Part shown: in pieces, positions 4,252-47,220 of the stretch | How positions within the stretch are numbered: position 1 is the first letter of the stretch | Layout of the letters: the number at the start of each line of letters is the position of its first letter | NCBI GenBank assembly: GCA_900547955.1 | Contig: URIR01000002.1 | Coordinates: 26,943-90,942, forward strand | DNA from: an uncultured Eubacteriales bacterium | Lineage (GTDB): Bacteria > Bacillota > Clostridia > Christensenellales > QALW01 | DNA length: 64,000 bases | Reading direction: 5' to 3' | Made by a program: the position numbers and the translations under genes | The notes under the pieces: generated by a model | What the model saw: the letters and a program-made list of their open reading frames with translations, nothing else | What the model was told of the DNA's origin: nothing | Database searches by the model: none

Positions 4252-6339
4252 TTAACCCAGCTCTACATAACTGGAGCAGGTAACGTATTTACCGCCGTTG
4301 ATATTCGTGGTTATTTCAACGTAATAGCTGTACGCCTCCTCCGGAACACTACCCGTTATAGTATTTCCTGAAATTGTACAGGGAACGGTTTTCCAGGTCT
4401 GGTCCATGGTAGTCGTACTGTTGCCCGGCTTCTGGCTATAAGTCATTTTTTCAGTAATATAATATATTTTAGCAGTAACACCCGACGCGCCGGAGGGCGT
4501 ATTTATCTCTATGGAAACGTCCCGCCCGGCCGGCTCGTTTTTAAGCTGAGTAAGCCCGCCGCCGCCTTTTACAATCCAGTCCGCATAATAATAGCTTATA
4601 GCCTGCACCCAGCCGCTGCTATGGCTGTGATTCATATTATTTATCATAGCCAGCACAGTTTTATCCGTATGCTTTGTATCCAAATAGGATTTACTGTTGG
4701 AATTTATAGAGAAACAGTTATCGCTGTTCCAGCCCATCCAAAGCACGGGGAAATCTATATTATTAAATCTCTCCTGAGCGGACCAAACCGCCATGCTGGC
4801 CTCAGTATTAAAATTGGGGCCCATAAAGGAAAGCGCCTCTTCCAGATAACCGCTGCCGTAAATGGGAATCGCAAAAGCGTAACGGCTGTCATAGCCGATA
4901 GCCAAAGAGGTTATAACTCCGCCCCAGGAAATTCCCGTCACGCCTATTTTTGAGGAATCCACCTTTTCGTCCGCACGCAGAATATTGTGCGCCAAAATAG
5001 TCTGAGCTACTGCATGATACATCCACTGCCGCTCAGCCTGGCTGCCCGCATCCTTCATCCCGCTGTTATTTGGAGCGTTTGTATAACCCTCCTCGTCAAA
5101 ATCTCCTGAAAGTCCATAGGTCCAGTAATTCGCCGGATCTGCTTCCCTGCCGGCAAGGCCCTTGCCCGCCTCTGACGGGAAATAGCCGGTATTATCCATA
5201 GCTATTGCAACATAGCCTCTGTCCGTCCATCGCTTTACCCATTCGGCATAGGCATGGCCCCCGCCTCCATGCAAAAGCACTATAGCCGGCGCTTTATTGG
5301 AGCTGCTCGCGCCCTCCGGATAGCCTATATACGCAAAGACCTTAGTTTTCTGGCCCCCTATTTCCACCCCGTCATAGGTAAGCGCTTTTATGTTAGACCA
5401 AGCATTAGCGCCCGAAGCGCTGCTTTTGGGGTCGTATTCAGGCATATAGGTTACGTTGGGAACAATTTCAAGCATAGCCGAAAGGCCTTCCTCCACCTCT
5501 TTTTTCACTTCTTCAAGCGTGAGCACCTCAGGACCGTTATATTCTCTTTGAACCCCGCTGGCCGAATCAGTAAGACATATATCATCCAAAACATAATATT
5601 CCATTCCTGAAGGAGCGGCTGGACGCATATCAAAATTAAAGCTTTCAGCCTTTGAAATATCATCTATAACCGGATTAGACCAATAGGGCAGCATTTCCTC
5701 CGCTACAGGAAAAGCCACCCATCCAGAAAAGCCTGAGGGAAGCTGAACATGGTCCTGCGCTCCCGTGCCGGCCGAATCGTCTGTCGCCGTTTTTAAAACC
5801 TCTCCGTCGCAGCGGGTAACTATAGCTTTTCCGGCGTTCATTGAGCCTTGTTTTCCATCGCCCGTAAGTATCATGCCAATGCTAAGAGCACCCTCGCCCT
5901 GATTGGATACCCATATGCGAACGTATGCGTATTCATTTGCCTGAGCAAATTCTTCAGGCATAGCGGCAGAGAAATTCTGGCACCAGCAGCCTCCGTTATA
6001 ATCCAGAAGCACCTGAAAGCCCTTGCCCGTATCAGTATTTTTATCCGATATGGCCGTCTCTGAAAGGGGTATATTAAAATTGCTCAGGTCCTGCTGAGCA
6101 AATACATCCGCCTCAGCATTTTCAAAATCAAACAGCATAAGGTCGTCCTCCGATGGTAAAATTGGGCCGGCCGTCTCGGTAGCCTGCGCTTCAGCTGTAG
6201 AAGACGCGGAACTATTTCCCGAAGCGGAAGCGCTGGCCGAGGGCTTAGAAGCGTCCTTGGCGCAGCCCGCGGCAATGGCCATAAGCATGCAAACGCATAA
6301 AATGACCACAAGAACCTTTTTCATTGCACACTCCTCCAA
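4252..6339 (-). CDS. secreted lipoprotein, alpha/beta-hydrolase (carbohydrate-esterase-like) with an N-terminal CBM-like beta-sandwich region
   Basis: The signal peptide has a lipobox (LMAIAAGC) followed by a Ser/Ala-rich linker. The C-terminal half has LLHGGGGHAYAEW and a GISWGG nucleophile elbow. The exact esterase family cannot be assigned by eye. Confidence 0.6.
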   Translation of the reverse strand: MEECAMKKVLVVILCVCMLMAIAAGCAKDASKPSASASASGNSSASSTAEAQATETAGPILPSEDDLMLFDFENAEADVFAQQDLSNFNIPLSETAISDKNTDTGKGFQVLLDYNGGCWCQNFSAAMPEEFAQANEYAYVRIWVSNQGEGALSIGMILTGDGKQGSMNAGKAIVTRCDGEVLKTATDDSAGTGAQDHVQLPSGFSGWVAFPVAEEMLPYWSNPVIDDISKAESFNFDMRPAAPSGMEYYVLDDICLTDSASGVQREYNGPEVLTLEEVKKEVEEGLSAMLEIVPNVTYMPEYDPKSSASGANAWSNIKALTYDGVEIGGQKTKVFAYIGYPEGASSSNKAPAIVLLHGGGGHAYAEWVKRWTDRGYVAIAMDNTGYFPSEAGKGLAGREADPANYWTYGLSGDFDEEGYTNAPNNSGMKDAGSQAERQWMYHAVAQTILAHNILRADEKVDSSKIGVTGISWGGVITSLAIGYDSRYAFAIPIYGSGYLEEALSFMGPNFNTEASMAVWSAQERFNNIDFPVLWMGWNSDNCFSINSNSKSYLDTKHTDKTVLAMINNMNHSHSSGWVQAISYYYADWIVKGGGGLTQLKNEPAGRDVSIEINTPSGASGVTAKIYYITEKMTYSQKPGNSTTTMDQTWKTVPCTISGNTITGSVPEEAYSYYVEITTNINGGKYVTCSSYVELG

Positions 6340-8795: not shown

Positions 8796-10172
8796 ATGAA
8801 TCAAAAAACATCGGCCGACTACTCCACCATAACCCCTAAAATCAGAGAGCTTGCCCAGATAAGTATGGACAACAGCAATATAGATAAGGAGCTGTACGTC
8901 AAGCATCATGTTTACCGCGGGCTCCGCGACTTGGATGGAAACGGAGTACTCACGGGACTTACCGAAATATCGGATATTGTTTCAAGCAAAATACAGGATG
9001 GGCAAAAGGTCTCCTGCGAGGGGGAATTATATTACCGCGGCATAAGCATTCAGGATATAGTGAAGGGGTTTATTGCCGAAAAGAGATACGGTTTTGAAGA
9101 GGTTACTTATCTTCTGCTGTTCGGCAATCTTCCTACGCGCGACCAGCTCCAGGAATTCAGCGAGCTGCTCGCATATTACCGCACCCTGCCGACAGGCTTT
9201 GTCCGTGATATTATAATGAAGGCGCCCAGCAAGGATATGATGAATACCCTGGCGCGCTGCGTACTTACAATGTATTCCTACGACGCCAACGCGGACGATA
9301 TAAGCATCCCCAACGTGCTTAGGCAGTGCCTTCAGCTTATAGCGCTTTTCCCGCTTTTTTCAGTTTACGGATATCAAGCATACAGCCACTATCACGACGG
9401 AAAAAGCCTGTTCATTCATCCGCCTGTACCCGAATTGTCTACGGCGGAGAATATTCTCTATACCTTAAGAGCAGACAGCTCGTATACTGAGCTGGAAGCC
9501 AAAATTTTGGATGTAGCGCTGGTACTGCATGCTGAACACGGCGGAGGCAACAACTCCACCTTCACCACCCACGTCGTATCCTCCTCAGGCACCGATACAT
9601 ATTCCACCATAGCCGCCTCCCTGGGCTCCCTCAAAGGCCCTAAGCATGGAGGCGCCAATATAAAGGTAGTACAAATGATAGAAGATATGAAAGCCTCCGT
9701 ATCCGACTGGGAAGATGAAGAGGAAATAAAAGCCTACCTCAAGGCATTATTAAATAAGCAGGCGTTTGACCGCAGCGGCCTGATATACGGCATGGGCCAC
9801 GCCGTTTACTCTCTTTCCGACCCAAGAGCAGATATTTTTAAAAGCTTTGTTAAAAGCCTATCTGAAGAAAAGGGCCTGTCCAAAGAATTTGCCCTCTATT
9901 CGCTGGTAGAGCGTTTAGCGCCCGAAGTAATATCCAAGGAGCGCAAAATCTACAAAGGAGTCAGCGCCAATATCGATTTTTACAGCGGCTTTGTTTACAG
10001 CATGCTTAATCTTCCTCTGGAGCTGTATACGCCTATATTTGCAGTTTCACGCATTGCCGGATGGAGTGCGCACCGCATTGAAGAGCTGGTGAACGCCGGA
10101 AAAATTATACGCCCCTCTTATATGAACGTTATGCCAAGGCGAGACTATATCCGTTTGGACGAAAGAAAATAA
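8796..10172 (+). CDS. citrate synthase (Si-type citrate/2-methylcitrate synthase family)
   Basis: 458 aa with LHAEHGGGNNSTF, GPKHGGAN and GMGHAVY motifs, plus DFYSG. Confidence 0.9.
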   Translation: MNQKTSADYSTITPKIRELAQISMDNSNIDKELYVKHHVYRGLRDLDGNGVLTGLTEISDIVSSKIQDGQKVSCEGELYYRGISIQDIVKGFIAEKRYGFEEVTYLLLFGNLPTRDQLQEFSELLAYYRTLPTGFVRDIIMKAPSKDMMNTLARCVLTMYSYDANADDISIPNVLRQCLQLIALFPLFSVYGYQAYSHYHDGKSLFIHPPVPELSTAENILYTLRADSSYTELEAKILDVALVLHAEHGGGNNSTFTTHVVSSSGTDTYSTIAASLGSLKGPKHGGANIKVVQMIEDMKASVSDWEDEEEIKAYLKALLNKQAFDRSGLIYGMGHAVYSLSDPRADIFKSFVKSLSEEKGLSKEFALYSLVERLAPEVISKERKIYKGVSANIDFYSGFVYSMLNLPLELYTPIFAVSRIAGWSAHRIEELVNAGKIIRPSYMNVMPRRDYIRLDERK

Positions 10173-10190: not shown

Positions 10191-10372
10191 GGCAGGCGCT
10201 CAGACGCATTCAAGGCGGGGCGGCGCGAAGCCCGGCTTCGCCGGGCCAAGCCTGGGATATGCATATGGGAAAGCAAGCTTTCCCATATGCATATCCCAGG
10301 CTGAATTTTTGCTTCCATTATGGAAGCAAAAATTTCGCGCCGCCCCGCCTTGAATGCGTCTGAGCGCCTGCC
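10191..10372. repeat. GC-rich nested-palindrome element, copy A (39-bp perfect outer stem enclosing three hairpins)
   Basis: 10191-10229 is the exact reverse complement of 10334-10372. The interior holds three hairpins:
- GCCCGGC-TTC-GCCGGGC (10230-10246).
- A 25-bp perfect hairpin (10250-10301).
- AATTTTTGCTTCCA / TGGAAGCAAAAATT (10304-10334). Confidence 0.9.
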
Positions 10373-10503: not shown

Positions 10504-10755
10504 TTGAACTGCAGCGTCGAGGAACGCGCCATATTACTTGGCAACTACATAGCCGAAAACAACGCGACCGTTCGTACTGCCGCAAATCAGTTTTCAGTTA
10601 GCAAAAGCACCGTACATAAAGACGTAACCTACAGACTCAGCAGAATTAATCCGCAGCTTTATGAGAGAGTAAAGCTGGTACTGGATACCAACAAAGCAGA
10701 AAGGCATCTCCGCGGCGGCCAGGCTACTCGAAAAAAATACAGAAATCAAAGCTAA
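10504..10755 (+). CDS. spoIIID: sporulation transcriptional regulator SpoIIID
   Basis: 83 aa with ...ERAILLGNYIAENNATVRTAANQFSVSKSTVHKDV...KAERHLRGG, the SpoIIID HTH signature. It uses a TTG start with a GAGGGTG RBS. Confidence 0.9.
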   Translation: MNCSVEERAILLGNYIAENNATVRTAANQFSVSKSTVHKDVTYRLSRINPQLYERVKLVLDTNKAERHLRGGQATRKKYRNQS

Positions 10756-10828: not shown

Positions 10829-10835
10829 TATAAAA

Positions 10836-11166
10836 TTGAGACGGGCCTGTAAGCCGAGTTCTGTCGTGAATGACCATCTATCTATTCCCGCCGTTGCCGA
10901 ACGGGCTTAAGCGATTACCTGGAAGCCGGCGGACAACCGTTAATGCTTCGCTATCAATCTTGCTCCGGATGGGGTTTACAGGGCCTGCAAGTCGCCAAGC
11001 AGCCGGTGAGCTCTTACCTCGCCTTTCCACCCTTACCTGCAAAGGCAGGCGGTATATCTCTGTTGCACTCTCCTTGGAGTCGCCTCCACCGGATGTTATC
11101 CGGCATCCTGTCCTGCGGAGCTCGGACTTTCCTCGTATTTTCACCGCGGTCATTCGGCCCGCTCAA
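10836..11166 (-). ncRNA. rnpB: RNase P RNA (bacterial type)
   Basis: On the minus strand it contains CGAGGAAAGTCCGAGCTCCGCAGG (the P4 5' strand) near 11120-11142. It also contains TAGATGGTCATTCACGACAGAACTCGGCTTACAGG (the P4 3' strand / conserved 3' region) near 10848-10880. The termini TTGAGCGGGCC and GGCCCGTCTCAA can form P1. The ends are approximate. Confidence 0.9.
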
Positions 11167-24783: not shown

Positions 24784-24836
24784 AAAACCGCGGATATAAA
24801 AATTCTGAGAATTTTTATATCCGCGGTTTTATTTTG
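24784..24836 (+). terminator. rho-independent terminator of the EF-G2 gene
   Basis: A 22-bp perfect hairpin (AAAACCGCGGATATAAAAATTC-TGA-GAATTTTTATATCCGCGGTTTT) is followed by ATTTTG. Confidence 0.8.
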
Positions 24837-24847
24837 CCTTTGATAAA

Positions 24848-24969
24848 AAAACAGCCCCGGGACAATACGCCGGCGTTTGCGGCCTGAAAGGCCGCAGGCC
24901 GGGCTTCGCCCGGCCCAGGCAGGCGCTTTGCGCCTGCCAAACGCCGGCGTATTGTCCCGGGGCTGTTTT
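24848..24969. repeat. GC-rich nested-palindrome element, copy B (31-bp perfect outer stem, three short GC hairpins)
   Basis: 24848-24878 is the exact reverse complement of 24939-24969. The interior hairpins are GCGGCC-TGAAA-GGCCGC, GGCCGGGC-TTC-GCCCGGCC and GGCAGGCGC-TTT-GCGCCTGCC. Confidence 0.9.
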
Positions 24970-24985
24970 ATTTAAAAAGCTTTAA

Positions 24986-31168: not shown

Positions 31169-31348
31169 TTTACAGCTCCTTTAAAAAATAATAAGCAGCT
31201 TTTTACTACTCTTTAAAAGCCACAACAAACATATTAACACAATTCCTTAAATTTCACAATTAATTTATACTGAGATGCAGGCAGTAAAAACAATATTTTA
31301 AGAAATTACGATTAAAAACAAGCAGCGCGTATGCCTGGAAGAATATTT

Positions 31349-31531
31349 TTATTATCCCGCGCATAAAGGAGCCAGGGGGGCGGCGCGGAATTTTTGCGCC
31401 CTTTCAGGGCGCAAAAATAGAGCGCAGCCAATATGCCGCGAAAGCTTGCTTTCTCGGTATATTGGCTGCGCTGGGCCAGGCTTCGCCTGGCTCCGCGCCG
31501 CCCCCTGGCTCCTTTATGCGCGGGATAATAA
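31349..31531. repeat. GC-rich nested-palindrome element, copy C (~41-bp outer stem with one bulge, three hairpins)
   Basis: 31349-31389 pairs with 31492-31531, with 6 G opposite 5 C. The interior hairpins are:
- ATTTTTGCGCCCT-TTC-AGGGCGCAAAAAT.
- A ~23-bp hairpin (31421-31472, 2 mismatches).
- GCCAGGC-TTC-GCCTGGC.
The module order is the mirror image of copy A. Confidence 0.9.
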
Positions 31532-31644
31532 AGAGCCGCTTCGTGGTAAAAAAAACGGCCGTCCCAAAAGAGGACATACGGATAGCAGACATGGACATAA
31601 CGCGCGGACGGTCATGCCTCTTTTTTCACCCCTATAAAAAGTAT

Positions 31645-34801: not shown

Positions 34802-34996
34802 TTACTTAGAGGTTCTCTCATAGGATTCGATCATGCGCTTAACCATCTCGCCGCCGATAGAACCAGCCTCGCGGGAAGTTAAATCGCCGTTATAGCCCTG
34901 CTTGAGATTAACTCCCACCTGCTTGGCAACCTCGTTCTTAAGGTTGTTCATAGCCTGCTTCGCTTCGGGTACAACCAGCTTATTGCTTCTAGCCAT
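34802..34996 (-). CDS. alpha/beta-type small acid-soluble spore protein
   Basis: 64 aa: SNKLVVPEAKQAMNNLKNEVAKQVGVNL...GDLTSREAGSIGGEMVKRMIE, the canonical SASP signature. Confidence 0.95.
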   Translation of the reverse strand: MARSNKLVVPEAKQAMNNLKNEVAKQVGVNLKQGYNGDLTSREAGSIGGEMVKRMIESYERTSK

Positions 34997-35047
34997 TTCT
35001 TTTTCACCTCCTGGTCATTATTTAATGAATATCGGTATAAATATAAC

Positions 35048-35242
35048 TTACTTGTTGCCGCGCTGATACGACTCGATCATCCTGCGAACCATCTCGCCGC
35101 CTACGCTGCCGTTCTGCTTAGCAGTCAGATCGCCGTTATAGCCCTGCTTCAGGTTTACTCCCATGGAGCTGGCCACTTCATATTTGAAGTTGTCCATAGC
35201 CTGCTTCGCCTCGGGAACCACAAGTTTATTGCTTGACGCCAT
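35048..35242 (-). CDS. alpha/beta-type small acid-soluble spore protein
   Basis: 64 aa and a paralog of the previous gene: SNKLVVPEAKQAMDNFKYEVASSMGVNL...GGEMVRRMIE. Confidence 0.95.
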   Translation of the reverse strand: MASSNKLVVPEAKQAMDNFKYEVASSMGVNLKQGYNGDLTAKQNGSVGGEMVRRMIESYQRGNK

Positions 35243-35406
35243 TTAAAATTCACCTCCTTAAGAAGTTTCTGATATTATTTTGCTATATTAATTTAGAAAT
35301 ATTACAGGTAATTTATAGAAAATTCATTTTTCTTAAATAATGCAAGAAATCAAATTTACACGCATACAATAAATAATATAAAAAACAGCCGAACGGAGGC
35401 GCAACC

Positions 35407-36856: not shown

Positions 36857-36989
36857 TTTCAGCGCAGAAAAAGCCCCAGGGGGGCGGCGTTGGGCAGGCT
36901 TATTAAGCCTGCCTGGGCCGGGCCTAAGGCCCGGCCCGCGGCCGAAGGCCGCGCAACGCCGCCCCCCTGGGGCTTTTTCTGCGCTGAAA
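36857..36989. repeat. GC-rich nested-palindrome element, copy D (36-bp perfect outer stem, three short GC hairpins)
   Basis: 36857-36892 is the exact reverse complement of 36954-36989. The interior hairpins are GGCAGGCTT-ATT-AAGCCTGCC, GGGCCGGGCC-TAA-GGCCCGGCCC and GCGGCC-GAA-GGCCGC. These are the same three modules as copy B, in reversed order. Confidence 0.9.
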
Positions 36990-44390: not shown

Positions 44391-44625
44391 CTAATAAAAA
44401 TAAAACCGTCCTTTACAAAAAGGACGGCTGAACCGCGGTACCACCTTAATTCCGCACGCATAAAGCGCGCGGCGCTCATTACGCTTTAACGGGCGCACCC
44501 GTGCAGAGCTACTTTAAAACACTTTCACCCTGCGCGCTCCAAAGCGACCTTCAGCTTGTTTCCCCGCGCCCTTTCACCGCTACGAGCGCTCTCTTAAGGC
44601 AGAAACACAGCCTACTCCTCTTTTT
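44391..44625 (-). promoter_or_regulatory. T-box riboswitch leader of valS with terminator/antiterminator
   Basis: On the minus strand it has the T-box sequence GGTGGTACCGCG (44433-44444). This is followed by the terminator hairpin AGCCGTCC...GGACGGTT plus a T run (44391-44428). Upstream stem I elements include AGAGAG and GGTGAAAG. A GUC (Val) triplet lies in GAAGGUCGC (near 44538-44546) as a candidate specifier. Confidence 0.85.
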
Positions 44626-44638
44626 CACAGCGATATAT

Positions 44639-45645: not shown

Positions 45646-45922
45646 AAGTTAATCTTTTCACATCAAAATAGCGGAATCCCGTCTATTATCTCGCACACAG
45701 CTATATATGCAAATGGATAAGCTTTTTATATTGCATAAAGCCATGGGGCGCCCCGCCCTTTTAATGTGGGCGCATCCCGCTGGAAGCATTTCTACAGGTG
45801 CTGTCGCATTCCATGCGAAATTTTTCTTTAAAGCTTTAACCCTGCGCCCGCCCCTCGCCCTTTGGGCGATGGGCCATATAAACCCGCCGCCTTAACGGCG
45901 GCCTGCCCGCGCCCCTAGCAAT
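45646..45922. repeat. left arm of a ~280-bp inverted repeat flanking the XRE/Zn-ribbon cassette
   Basis: By hand alignment it is the reverse complement of 46881-47159. The first ~125 nt differ at one position. Overall identity is about 90-93%, with two divergent hairpin blocks. Confidence 0.9.
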
Positions 45923-46845: not shown

Positions 46846-46880
46846 TATTTACACCTTCTAACGCCGGGAAGATTGCTGGG

Positions 46881-47159
46881 GGCGCGGGCAGGCCGCCGTT
46901 AAGGCGGCGGGTTTATATGGCTCCCTGGCCCATAGGGGCAGGGAGCGGGCGCAGGGTTAAAGCTTTAAAGAAAAATTTCGCATGGAATGCAGCGGCGCCT
47001 GTAGAAATGCCGTCGGCGGGGTGCGCCCACATTAAAAGGGCGGGGCGCCCCATGGCTTTATTCAATATAAAAAGCTTATCCATTTGCATATATAGCTGTG
47101 TGCGAGATAATAGACGGGATTCCGCTATTTTGATGTGAAAAGATTAACTTCCCCCCTCC
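46881..47159. repeat. right arm of the ~280-bp inverted repeat flanking the XRE/Zn-ribbon cassette
   Basis: Reverse complement of 45646-45922 (see the left arm). Confidence 0.9.
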
Positions 47160-47164
47160 CCGCT

Positions 47165-47220
47165 TTCCTCCCCGCTTTCCTCCCCGCTTTTCTCCCCGCT
47201 TTTCCCGTTTCCACAACAAT
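47165..47220. repeat. 12-bp tandem repeat CTCCCCGCTTTY, about 4.6 copies
   Basis: Read directly: units at 47165, 47177, 47189 and 47201, plus a partial fifth. It lies immediately outside the right inverted-repeat arm. Confidence 0.9.

Follow-up and report, generated by a model that had tools for sequence, protein, structure and literature searches.

What kind of element is the long nested palindrome that separates the citrate synthase gene from spoIIID in an uncultured Eubacteriales bacterium, and how does such a structure persist? The element (element A, 10191-10372, 182 nt) lies in a stretch of 64,000 nucleotides (contig URIR01000002.1, positions 26,943 to 90,942), which is called the window below and provides the numbering used throughout. 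A preliminary description, made from the sequence alone, had reported perfect outer arms around a three-hairpin junction and had found no named repeat family to match it. On the evidence given below we regard it as somewhat probable that A belongs, as a type I member, to a superfamily of mosaic, nested-palindromic repeats that is interspersed in the genomes of one lineage, is symmetrised at the DNA level and doubles as a bidirectional terminator.

The outer arms of A are indeed exact reverse complements over 39 nt (100%), with 104 nt between them, and the interior is made up of three perfect hairpins joined by linkers of 1-2 nt. These hairpins measure 7, 26 and 15 bp; the 25 and 14 bp given before refer to the same helices, counted with a 4-nt and a 3-nt loop, respectively. 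The proposed four-way junction is exactly the minimum-energy fold both of the DNA (-113 kcal/mol, z = -22.1, with none of 200 dinucleotide shuffles folding as well) and of the RNA (-172 kcal/mol, z = -21.8). The distance of 19 nt from the citrate synthase stop codon was also right in the sense that the element starts with the 19th base past the stop, so that 18 nt intervene (the open reading frame, including the stop, ends at 10172).

A superfamily with two architectures

A sliding-window fold of the whole window returned exactly four giant structures, A, B, C and D (Table 1). A and C are type I and B and D are type II members of one repeat superfamily, which is recognised by a conserved closing stem, GGGGCGGCG...CGCCGCCCC, that encloses three hairpins. 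All four elements have GGCGGCG where this stem meets the interior, and locus-specific outer arms lengthen the palindrome beyond it. The G-rich segment that had been noticed in the outer stems of A, C and D, GGGGCGGCG, occurs six times in the window, and all six occurrences are these arms. As the outer stems are palindromic and have no orientation of their own, an element is oriented by the order in which its modules follow one another. C carries the three module types of A in mirror order, and a covariance model (R1, built from 13 type I copies) scores 124 bits for A and 115 bits for C on the other strand, which bears out the earlier suggestion that both are one element in opposite orientations. 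The two subfamilies, the palindromic symmetry at the DNA level, the flips between strains and the terminator positions described here lay beyond the view of the preliminary description.

In type I elements the closing stem is ...GGGGCGGCGCG, and the three modules are, in order, a short GC hairpin, a long hairpin with the apex (G)GAAAGC-nn-GCTTTC(C) and a hairpin that starts with ATTTT(T/G)GC. The type II closing stem, ...G(G/C)CGGCGTT(T)G, encloses the short hairpins CGGCC..GGCCG, GGCCGGGC..GCCCGGCC and GGCAGGC..GCCTGCC. In element B the closing stem ...GCCGGCGTTTG surrounds CGGCC-TGAAA-GGCCG, GGCCGGGC-TTC-GCCCGGCC and GGCAGGCGC-TTT-GCGCCTGCC, and the outer arms consist of an A-run and a T-run, resembling a bidirectional terminator.

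Table 1. Positions of element A and its parts, of the other nested palindromes and of further features of the window
Feature	Position	Strand	Remarks
Citrate synthase gene, upstream of element A	8796-10172	+	Pfam PF00285
Element A, left outer arm	10191-10229	.	distal 26 nt locus-specific; inner part is the conserved family core
Conserved closing-stem core GGGGCGGCGCG, terminal inverted repeat of the superfamily	10217-10227	.	partner CGCGCCGCCCC at 10336-10346
Module 1, short GC hairpin GCCCGGC-TTC-GCCGGGC	10230-10246	+	7 bp, loop TTC
Module 2, long perfect hairpin	10249-10302	+	26 bp, loop AA
Module 3, AT-start hairpin AATTTTTGCTTCCAT-T-ATGGAAGCAAAAATT	10304-10334	+	15 bp, loop T; family consensus ATTTTGGCGCC...GGCGCCAAAAT
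Element A, right outer arm	10334-10372	.	single-arm C-to-T variants at two sites among strains
spoIIID gene, downstream of element A	10504-10755	+	Pfam PF12116
RNase P RNA (class A)	10833-11165	-	G·U control in the window
Simple perfect 23-bp hairpin, then ATTTTG	24784-24830	+	directly ahead of element B
Element B, type II	24838-24979	+	between convergent EF-G and sortase genes
Element C, type I paralog of A	31348-31532	-	115 bits; modules in opposite order on the + strand
Element D, type II	36857-36989	-	modules mirror the order of B; starts 19 nt past the flavin reductase/rubredoxin gene
T-box leader	44417-44637	-	G·U control in the window

Further copies exist at many loci. In total, we collected 69 non-redundant elements bounded by the conserved core; they come from the species of the window, from a sister species and from gut metagenome contigs related to them. 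About 14 of the elements are type I and 52 type II, and the rest contain other hairpin modules. One metagenome scan with the right end of type II as pattern returned 86 loci, of which about 50 are true elements at many different loci, on contigs of 44-50% GC, and a paired-core scan of these loci added more type I copies as well as the variants with other hairpin modules. Model R1 detected about 20 type I copies in the loci of the lineage, some of them new, and at E <= 0.1 nothing in 1.3 Mb from 79 loci of other Clostridia, in which the simple paired-core motif is absent as well; the motif is confined to the lineage. The window holds 4 elements in its 64 kb, and in the sister species the density reaches 5-6 per 21 kb. 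The occurrence of the same core at dozens of loci rules out chance growth at individual terminators.

Database searches are in line with the earlier failure to match A to a named family. At the gathering score, Rfam found only the RNase P and T-box RNAs in the window and none of the elements, and at E <= 5 the sole hit on A was a spurious microRNA-precursor model on its long hairpin. Searched with blastn, plasmids and phages contained nothing similar to A or B; 43 matches of viral contigs to the type II right end were discarded as noise, as all lack the partner arm and most lie in high-GC coding sequence. A scan of the window for tRNA and tmRNA genes was empty. In the literature we found no description of nested or cloverleaf palindromic repeats from Clostridia or Christensenellaceae, and the family is apparently undescribed so far. 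A related three-hairpin family bounded by GGGGGGGCGGCGG...CCGCCGCCCCCCC was observed in gut contigs of 51-60% GC (L166, L167, L175, L187, L199, L202, L229, L149, L197, L216 and L230), which indicates that the superfamily reaches beyond the genus of the window. Other Clostridia contain unrelated families of long nested palindromes (L084, 15379-15590 and 17815-18051; L079, 2508-2628), and L084 and L079 hold MITE-like copies (miniature inverted-repeat transposable elements) with common CTTTTCC-GATATC ends.

The hosts are uncultured Christensenellaceae-like gut Clostridia. Proteins flanking the elements in the window recur unchanged in many human-gut metagenome assemblies and in the metagenome-assembled genome (MAG) GCA_902473715.1, and the source name of the 90%-identity cluster of EF-P is "Christensenellaceae bacterium". 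Two contigs of one MAG (L007 and L008; QALW01000022 and QALW01000050) share an identical citrate synthase-spoIIID region. This MAG is labelled "Selenomonadales bacterium"; as it is the closest relative of the Christensenellaceae-like window, the label, or the binning, is probably wrong.

Comparison with the sister species, whose citrate synthase is 94% and whose XseA is 78% identical to that of the window, shows that the architecture is conserved in this relative. Its citrate synthase gene is followed by a type I element in which the modules are ordered as in A and the stems are strongly diverged and still perfectly paired; another type I element lies upstream of nusB and a type II element after the flavin reductase gene. 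Additional copies include a type II element beside the ortholog of C, which the window lacks. Module 1 of A has the same stem in the sister-species ortholog, where its loop is AAA, and the distal outer arm of A cannot be aligned between the two species. An alignment of the nusB region, in which an empty site was sought, was limited to the promoter-proximal 100 nt, the only part that aligns. In a more distant relative (XseA 64% identical), 14 kb contained no perfect inverted repeat of at least 13 bp.

Pairing is not all that is conserved. Element D is 85% identical between the species, more than the coding sequence beside it (79%) and the non-coding flank (58%), and the core is therefore constrained in sequence and not in pairing alone. 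In the 13-copy alignment of type I, the columns of the closing-stem core are invariant, and conservation extends over the closing stem as a whole and over the short GC and AT hairpins, where 19 of the 33 consensus pairs show two-sided changes and one-sided changes are rare; the module 1 hairpin is kept across the copies, its changes being compensated. The long hairpin has a conserved apex (in A GGGAAAGC-AA-GCTTTCCC, 10267-10284) on a hypervariable stem. From one copy to another, the sequence at about positions 7-21 from the apex is essentially random, and despite this the variable stem is perfectly paired in 10 of 13 copies. The idea that the hypervariable stem acts as a guide to another site was rejected, as the window contains no other match to it. 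Type II elements show two-sided pair changes throughout; their left closing arm and first hairpin, both of which lay outside the search pattern, are nearly invariant, and the middle hairpin varies. The terminal repeats GGGGCGGCG(C/TTTG)...CGCCGCCCC are invariant in alignments A1 and A2.

Long perfect palindromes are generally tolerated, or generated, by this lineage. In the sister species, the spacers that hold the elements are also packed with many further perfect hairpins and palindromes of 17-32 bp with unrelated sequences (L007, 3235-3420; L093, 8455-8488, 16797-16892 and 19860-19953), including loop-less palindromes of 44 and 64 bp. The same habit of long perfect hairpins is illustrated in the window by the 23-bp hairpin ahead of B, which is probably the terminator of the EF-G gene.

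Symmetry at the DNA level and differences among strains

The base pairs themselves point to DNA rather than RNA as the level at which symmetry is maintained. Among the predicted pairs of the 69 elements, 3413 are Watson-Crick and only 18 are G·U (0.5%), and the G·U count is essentially equal on the opposite strand, whereas the two structured RNAs of the window that served as controls reach 8% (RNase P RNA) and 20% (T-box RNA). The hairpin loops are mostly 3 nt long, and with all elements in a common orientation complementary loops are about equally common (GAA 9/TTC 6, AAA 6/TTT 5, TTC 4/GAA 4), from which we conclude that the hairpins flip independently and that no strand-specific loop is required. 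The orientation of type I elements relative to the upstream gene is mixed as well, with roughly five one way and three the other. In essence, we are dealing with palindromes of the DNA and not with RNAs that depend on one strand.

Closely related strains differ in just these properties. In element A, compared in seven strains, the long hairpin has either AA or TT as its loop, depending on the strain, and a few single-arm C-to-T changes were found; this 2-nt loop is the only part of A that flips. In element C, compared in nine strains, the whole interior is reverse-complemented in L097 and L098; when the interior of the window is turned round, 101 of 102 positions agree with these strains, and the mismatch positions in the long hairpin are swapped in line with an inversion. 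The inversion was seen on two long contigs (98 and 101 kb) from different assemblers. Over 20 kb, only 38 single-nucleotide polymorphisms (SNPs) separate L098 from the non-inverted strain L100, as compared with 125 between the two inverted strains, and as an inverted strain is nearer to a non-inverted one than to the other inverted strain, the flips must be recent and recurrent. Furthermore, two linked substitutions in L100 make one arm of the long hairpin of C match the other, which is an arm-to-arm conversion. In the sister species the loop of one hairpin is t or a, strain by strain.

Element B is less clear. An apparent flip in L089 was downgraded and may be an assembly artefact, as it is located at the end of a contig and the three strains with a complete element have the arrangement of the window. 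Many contigs end inside B and one scaffold contains an N gap there (loci L087, L089-L091, L237, L240 and L242), which fits mixed orientations in the sample or poor coverage of a GC-rich palindrome.

Template switching between the arms of inverted repeats has been linked to arm homogenisation and to inversion of the spacer (PMC8604942). The strain changes at A and C correspond to both of these published outcomes, and we therefore propose that template switching keeps the elements symmetrical and flips their interiors. By our own estimate, a neutral inversion rate of about 1e-7 to 1e-8 per generation would be sufficient for the flips. The DNA polymerase would switch templates between the arms during replication, homogenise them and invert the spacers, and the element would behave as a DNA palindrome and not as a strand-specific RNA.

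Genomic position, possible function and alternative explanations

The location of the elements suggests a role at the ends of transcripts. Of the 69 copies, 67 are intergenic; 26 of the gene pairs around them are convergent and 25 tandem, and only 3 are divergent. Between tandem genes, the element is mostly nearer to the upstream stop codon, and one copy lies directly 3' of rplL. The flanking genes are ordinary: housekeeping genes make up the gene content in and around the window, and according to Pfam all genes between paired elements are housekeeping genes too. Look-ups of the sortase and of one other protein of the window yielded no record. In 35 of 67 copies a T-tract starts or lies no more than 25 nt from the right core. 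In B, D and many metagenome copies an A-run precedes and a T-run follows the GC-rich closing stem, as in bidirectional intrinsic terminators, and B and D have the layout of an intrinsic terminator in both directions. In A this layout is restricted to the inner long hairpin (module 2), which is followed by AATTTTT on the + strand, the strand of the citrate synthase gene, and is thereby terminator-like; apart from this hairpin, no terminator candidate was found ahead of spoIIID. On these grounds of sequence we assign the elements a putative role as orientation-tolerant terminators or 3'-end-protecting structures. They would be tolerated, and probably used, as orientation-independent bidirectional terminators or as structures that protect the 3' ends of RNAs, and in the case of A the transcription of the citrate synthase gene would be insulated from the sporulation gene spoIIID. 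In the past the family may have spread by copying of whole palindromic units, which are now largely fixed. Close paralogs a few kb apart have their outer arms and adjoining hairpins in common, which shows that whole palindromic arrays can be duplicated, and the family as a whole looks old and largely fixed. The element was present in every orthologous comparison, and one copy had lost its middle hairpin. Insertion polymorphism between related strains, a check that the preliminary description had recommended, was not found among up to nine strains per locus.

Several observations weigh against this combination of symmetrisation, termination and past spread. The inversions were read from assembled contigs. 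The outer stem of A is not followed by a T-run, and A/T tracts accompany only about half of the copies. Target-site duplications were not found, since the flanking direct repeats of 0-2 nt are the same as in controls, a comparison of the flanks across all collected loci revealed no empty site among strains, and about 110 kb of Pfam-annotated neighbourhood contained neither a transposase or recombinase family in general nor a gene for RAYT, a Y1/HUH transposase. Furthermore, the conservation of core, apex and AT hairpin implies sequence-specific recognition by some factor, and neither a plain terminator role nor template switching accounts for it. The closing stem, the junction, the apex and the AT hairpin could form the putative recognition site of a dedicated Y1/HUH nuclease or junction-processing recombinase that copies and flips the elements; we consider such an enzyme decidedly unlikely, and if it existed, the elements would represent a new kind of "mobile terminator", invertible and self-symmetrising, by which Christensenellaceae-like gut bacteria adjust read-through between many of their operons.

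The conserved terminal inverted repeats and the many dispersed copies would also be expected of non-autonomous transposons that are still active, either MITEs with a DDE transposase acting on the GGGGCGGCG repeats or REPIN-like units with a Y1/HUH (RAYT-like) enzyme, and the close paralogs with their common arms and hairpins as well as the extra type II copy beside the C ortholog of the sister species are in line with this explanation. It is nevertheless unlikely in our opinion, as the copies are diverged and not near-identical, direct target-site duplication does not exceed chance and presence/absence polymorphism is missing from the strain comparisons. The annotated neighbourhoods are free of transposases, no GTAG or CGTC tag characterises the elements, and a longer autonomous element with the same ends was not detected in the approximately 1 Mb of loci collected, where no segment carrying an open reading frame is bounded by these repeats and only pairs of small elements occur. 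The sequence conservation beyond the needs of pairing and the apparent orientation independence of the function would suit DNA-level sites for a host protein, for example a nucleoid protein that binds junctions or hairpins, or gyrase as at BIME-2, with the terminator-like location being incidental. We rate such sites as quite improbable: a candidate protein was not identified, cruciform extrusion in vivo is hypothetical, and the A/T-tract arms and the strong 3'-end bias fit a transcriptional role better.

A function as strand-specific structured RNA (small RNA, cis-regulatory element of the 3' untranslated region or ribozyme-like junction), of which the palindromic DNA would be a by-product, could explain the very stable predicted RNA fold, the compensatory changes that preserve every helix and the position right after genes, where the elements are probably transcribed. 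The near absence of G·U pairs, with equal counts on both strands, the equal frequency of complementary loops, the inversion of a whole interior without loss, the missing orientation bias relative to genes and the lack of an Rfam match even at E <= 5 make it highly improbable. Finally, as in invertons, a segment between inverted repeats, the interior of C, occurs in both orientations, and this in very closely related strains. A site-specific recombinase might flip the interiors and, by an orientation-dependent terminator that is switched on or off, control read-through into the gene downstream; in type I only one orientation puts the long hairpin directly before the U-run, and the many assemblies that break inside B would fit mixed orientations within a sample. 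However, the invertible segments are only 58-104 bp long and consist entirely of hairpins, flips also affect hairpin loops of 1-3 nt, which no invertase would catalyse, no recombinase gene is near, and the orientation relative to the upstream gene is not conserved in type I (about 5 versus 3). We hold a switch of this kind to be the least probable of the explanations considered.

Some further features of the window and of other loci were recorded in passing. Genes for small HTH/XRE-type proteins, on a segment of about 960 bp, are enclosed by long inverted repeats with arms of about 270 bp (45646-45915 and 46879-47150), in which blocks of 88, 40, 46 and 43 bp are near-perfect; the gene content differs in strain L101, and the segment could be invertible or otherwise variable. 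A 12-nt tandem repeat, CCTCCCCGCTTT, adjoins this inverted repeat in about four copies (47155-47202). The intergenic repeat TACCCTCAGTTTACA occurs at five sites (21905, 22175, 27164, 35764 and 60919) with at most two mismatches, as compared with 0.02 expected, and similar words form inverted pairs in the related contigs L148 and L206; it may be the candidate binding site of a regulator. A direct repeat with a spacing of 246 nt (34802-35258) corresponds to two tandem genes for small acid-soluble spore proteins (SASP). Among the unrelated nested palindromes of other Clostridia, a conserved 120-nt structure is common to three MAGs (L034, L042 and L054, at about 4574-5289).

Significance and comparison with known systems

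The elements represent a new interspersed repeat family with two or more subfamilies in a major uncultured lineage of the human gut. As a natural example of template switching, a nested palindrome in which arm homogenisation and spacer inversion are visible among strains at every level would explain how long perfect palindromes can persist. In practical terms, these repeats break short-read assemblies and will register as "invertons" in screens for phase variation. If they act as terminators, they shape operon boundaries, for example by keeping citrate synthase transcription out of spoIIID.

Among known repeats, REP, BIME and REPIN elements come close, as they too are GC-rich palindromic units at extragenic positions and 3' ends of genes, are organised as mosaics and arrays in many copies and lineage-specific families, and are likely involved in termination or mRNA stabilisation. 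For REP/BIME, more than 100 copies per genome are given (PMC2817692), and the survey PMC3733652 reports such elements from other phyla without mentioning Firmicutes. The GTAG or CGTC tag that defines REP sequences (PMC3733652) is absent at a fixed position from our elements; in the core, these tags or their complements occur in 2-12 of the 69 elements and never at a fixed position. Moreover, REP/BIME units are short imperfect palindromes of 20-40 bp, whereas here perfect hairpins of 17-54 nt are combined in a palindrome of 120-190 nt, in which three hairpins within a conserved closing stem and long locus-specific arms form a four-way junction. In this architecture, A is unlike REP, BIME, ERIC, BOX and Correia elements.

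Some Correia/NEMIS, ERIC and BOX elements act as terminators. These MITEs, among them the pneumococcal BOX with its A-B-C modules, resemble our elements in their small size, terminal inverted repeats, modular build, intergenic location and stable folds. In contrast to them, no target-site duplication, insertion polymorphism or cognate insertion sequence was found here, the phage, plasmid and Rfam libraries contain no similar sequence, and the arms are perfectly complementary with locus-specific distal parts. Attachment sites of integrons (attC), imperfect palindromes with extrahelical bases beside cassette genes and an integrase, also differ, as the stems of our elements are perfect, the flanking genes are housekeeping genes and there is no integrase. 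Bidirectional intrinsic terminators share with B and D the outer arms of A-run, GC stem and T-run between convergent genes, but ordinary ones have one short hairpin and no conserved multi-copy sequence family.

With regard to inversion, the orientation of a short invertible segment reportedly can decide whether a terminator forms at cwpV of Clostridioides difficile; that switch differs by its dedicated recombinase, RecV, and by a segment of roughly 200 bp. The terminal repeats of parvoviruses such as adeno-associated virus (AAV) are similar in behaviour only, since a long stem closes small palindromes whose order occurs in both orientations. They are, however, the termini of a linear single-stranded DNA genome and flip by rolling-hairpin replication, whereas our elements are chromosome-internal, have no homology to them and come without a Rep protein. 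The closest parallel to the differences among our strains is template-switch mutagenesis, whose published outcomes (PMC8604942), arm homogenisation and spacer inversion, are the same as those that separate the strains here. What was described there is a mutational process; in the present family all levels of nesting are affected, in an element that is conserved and present in many copies and that the process appears to maintain.

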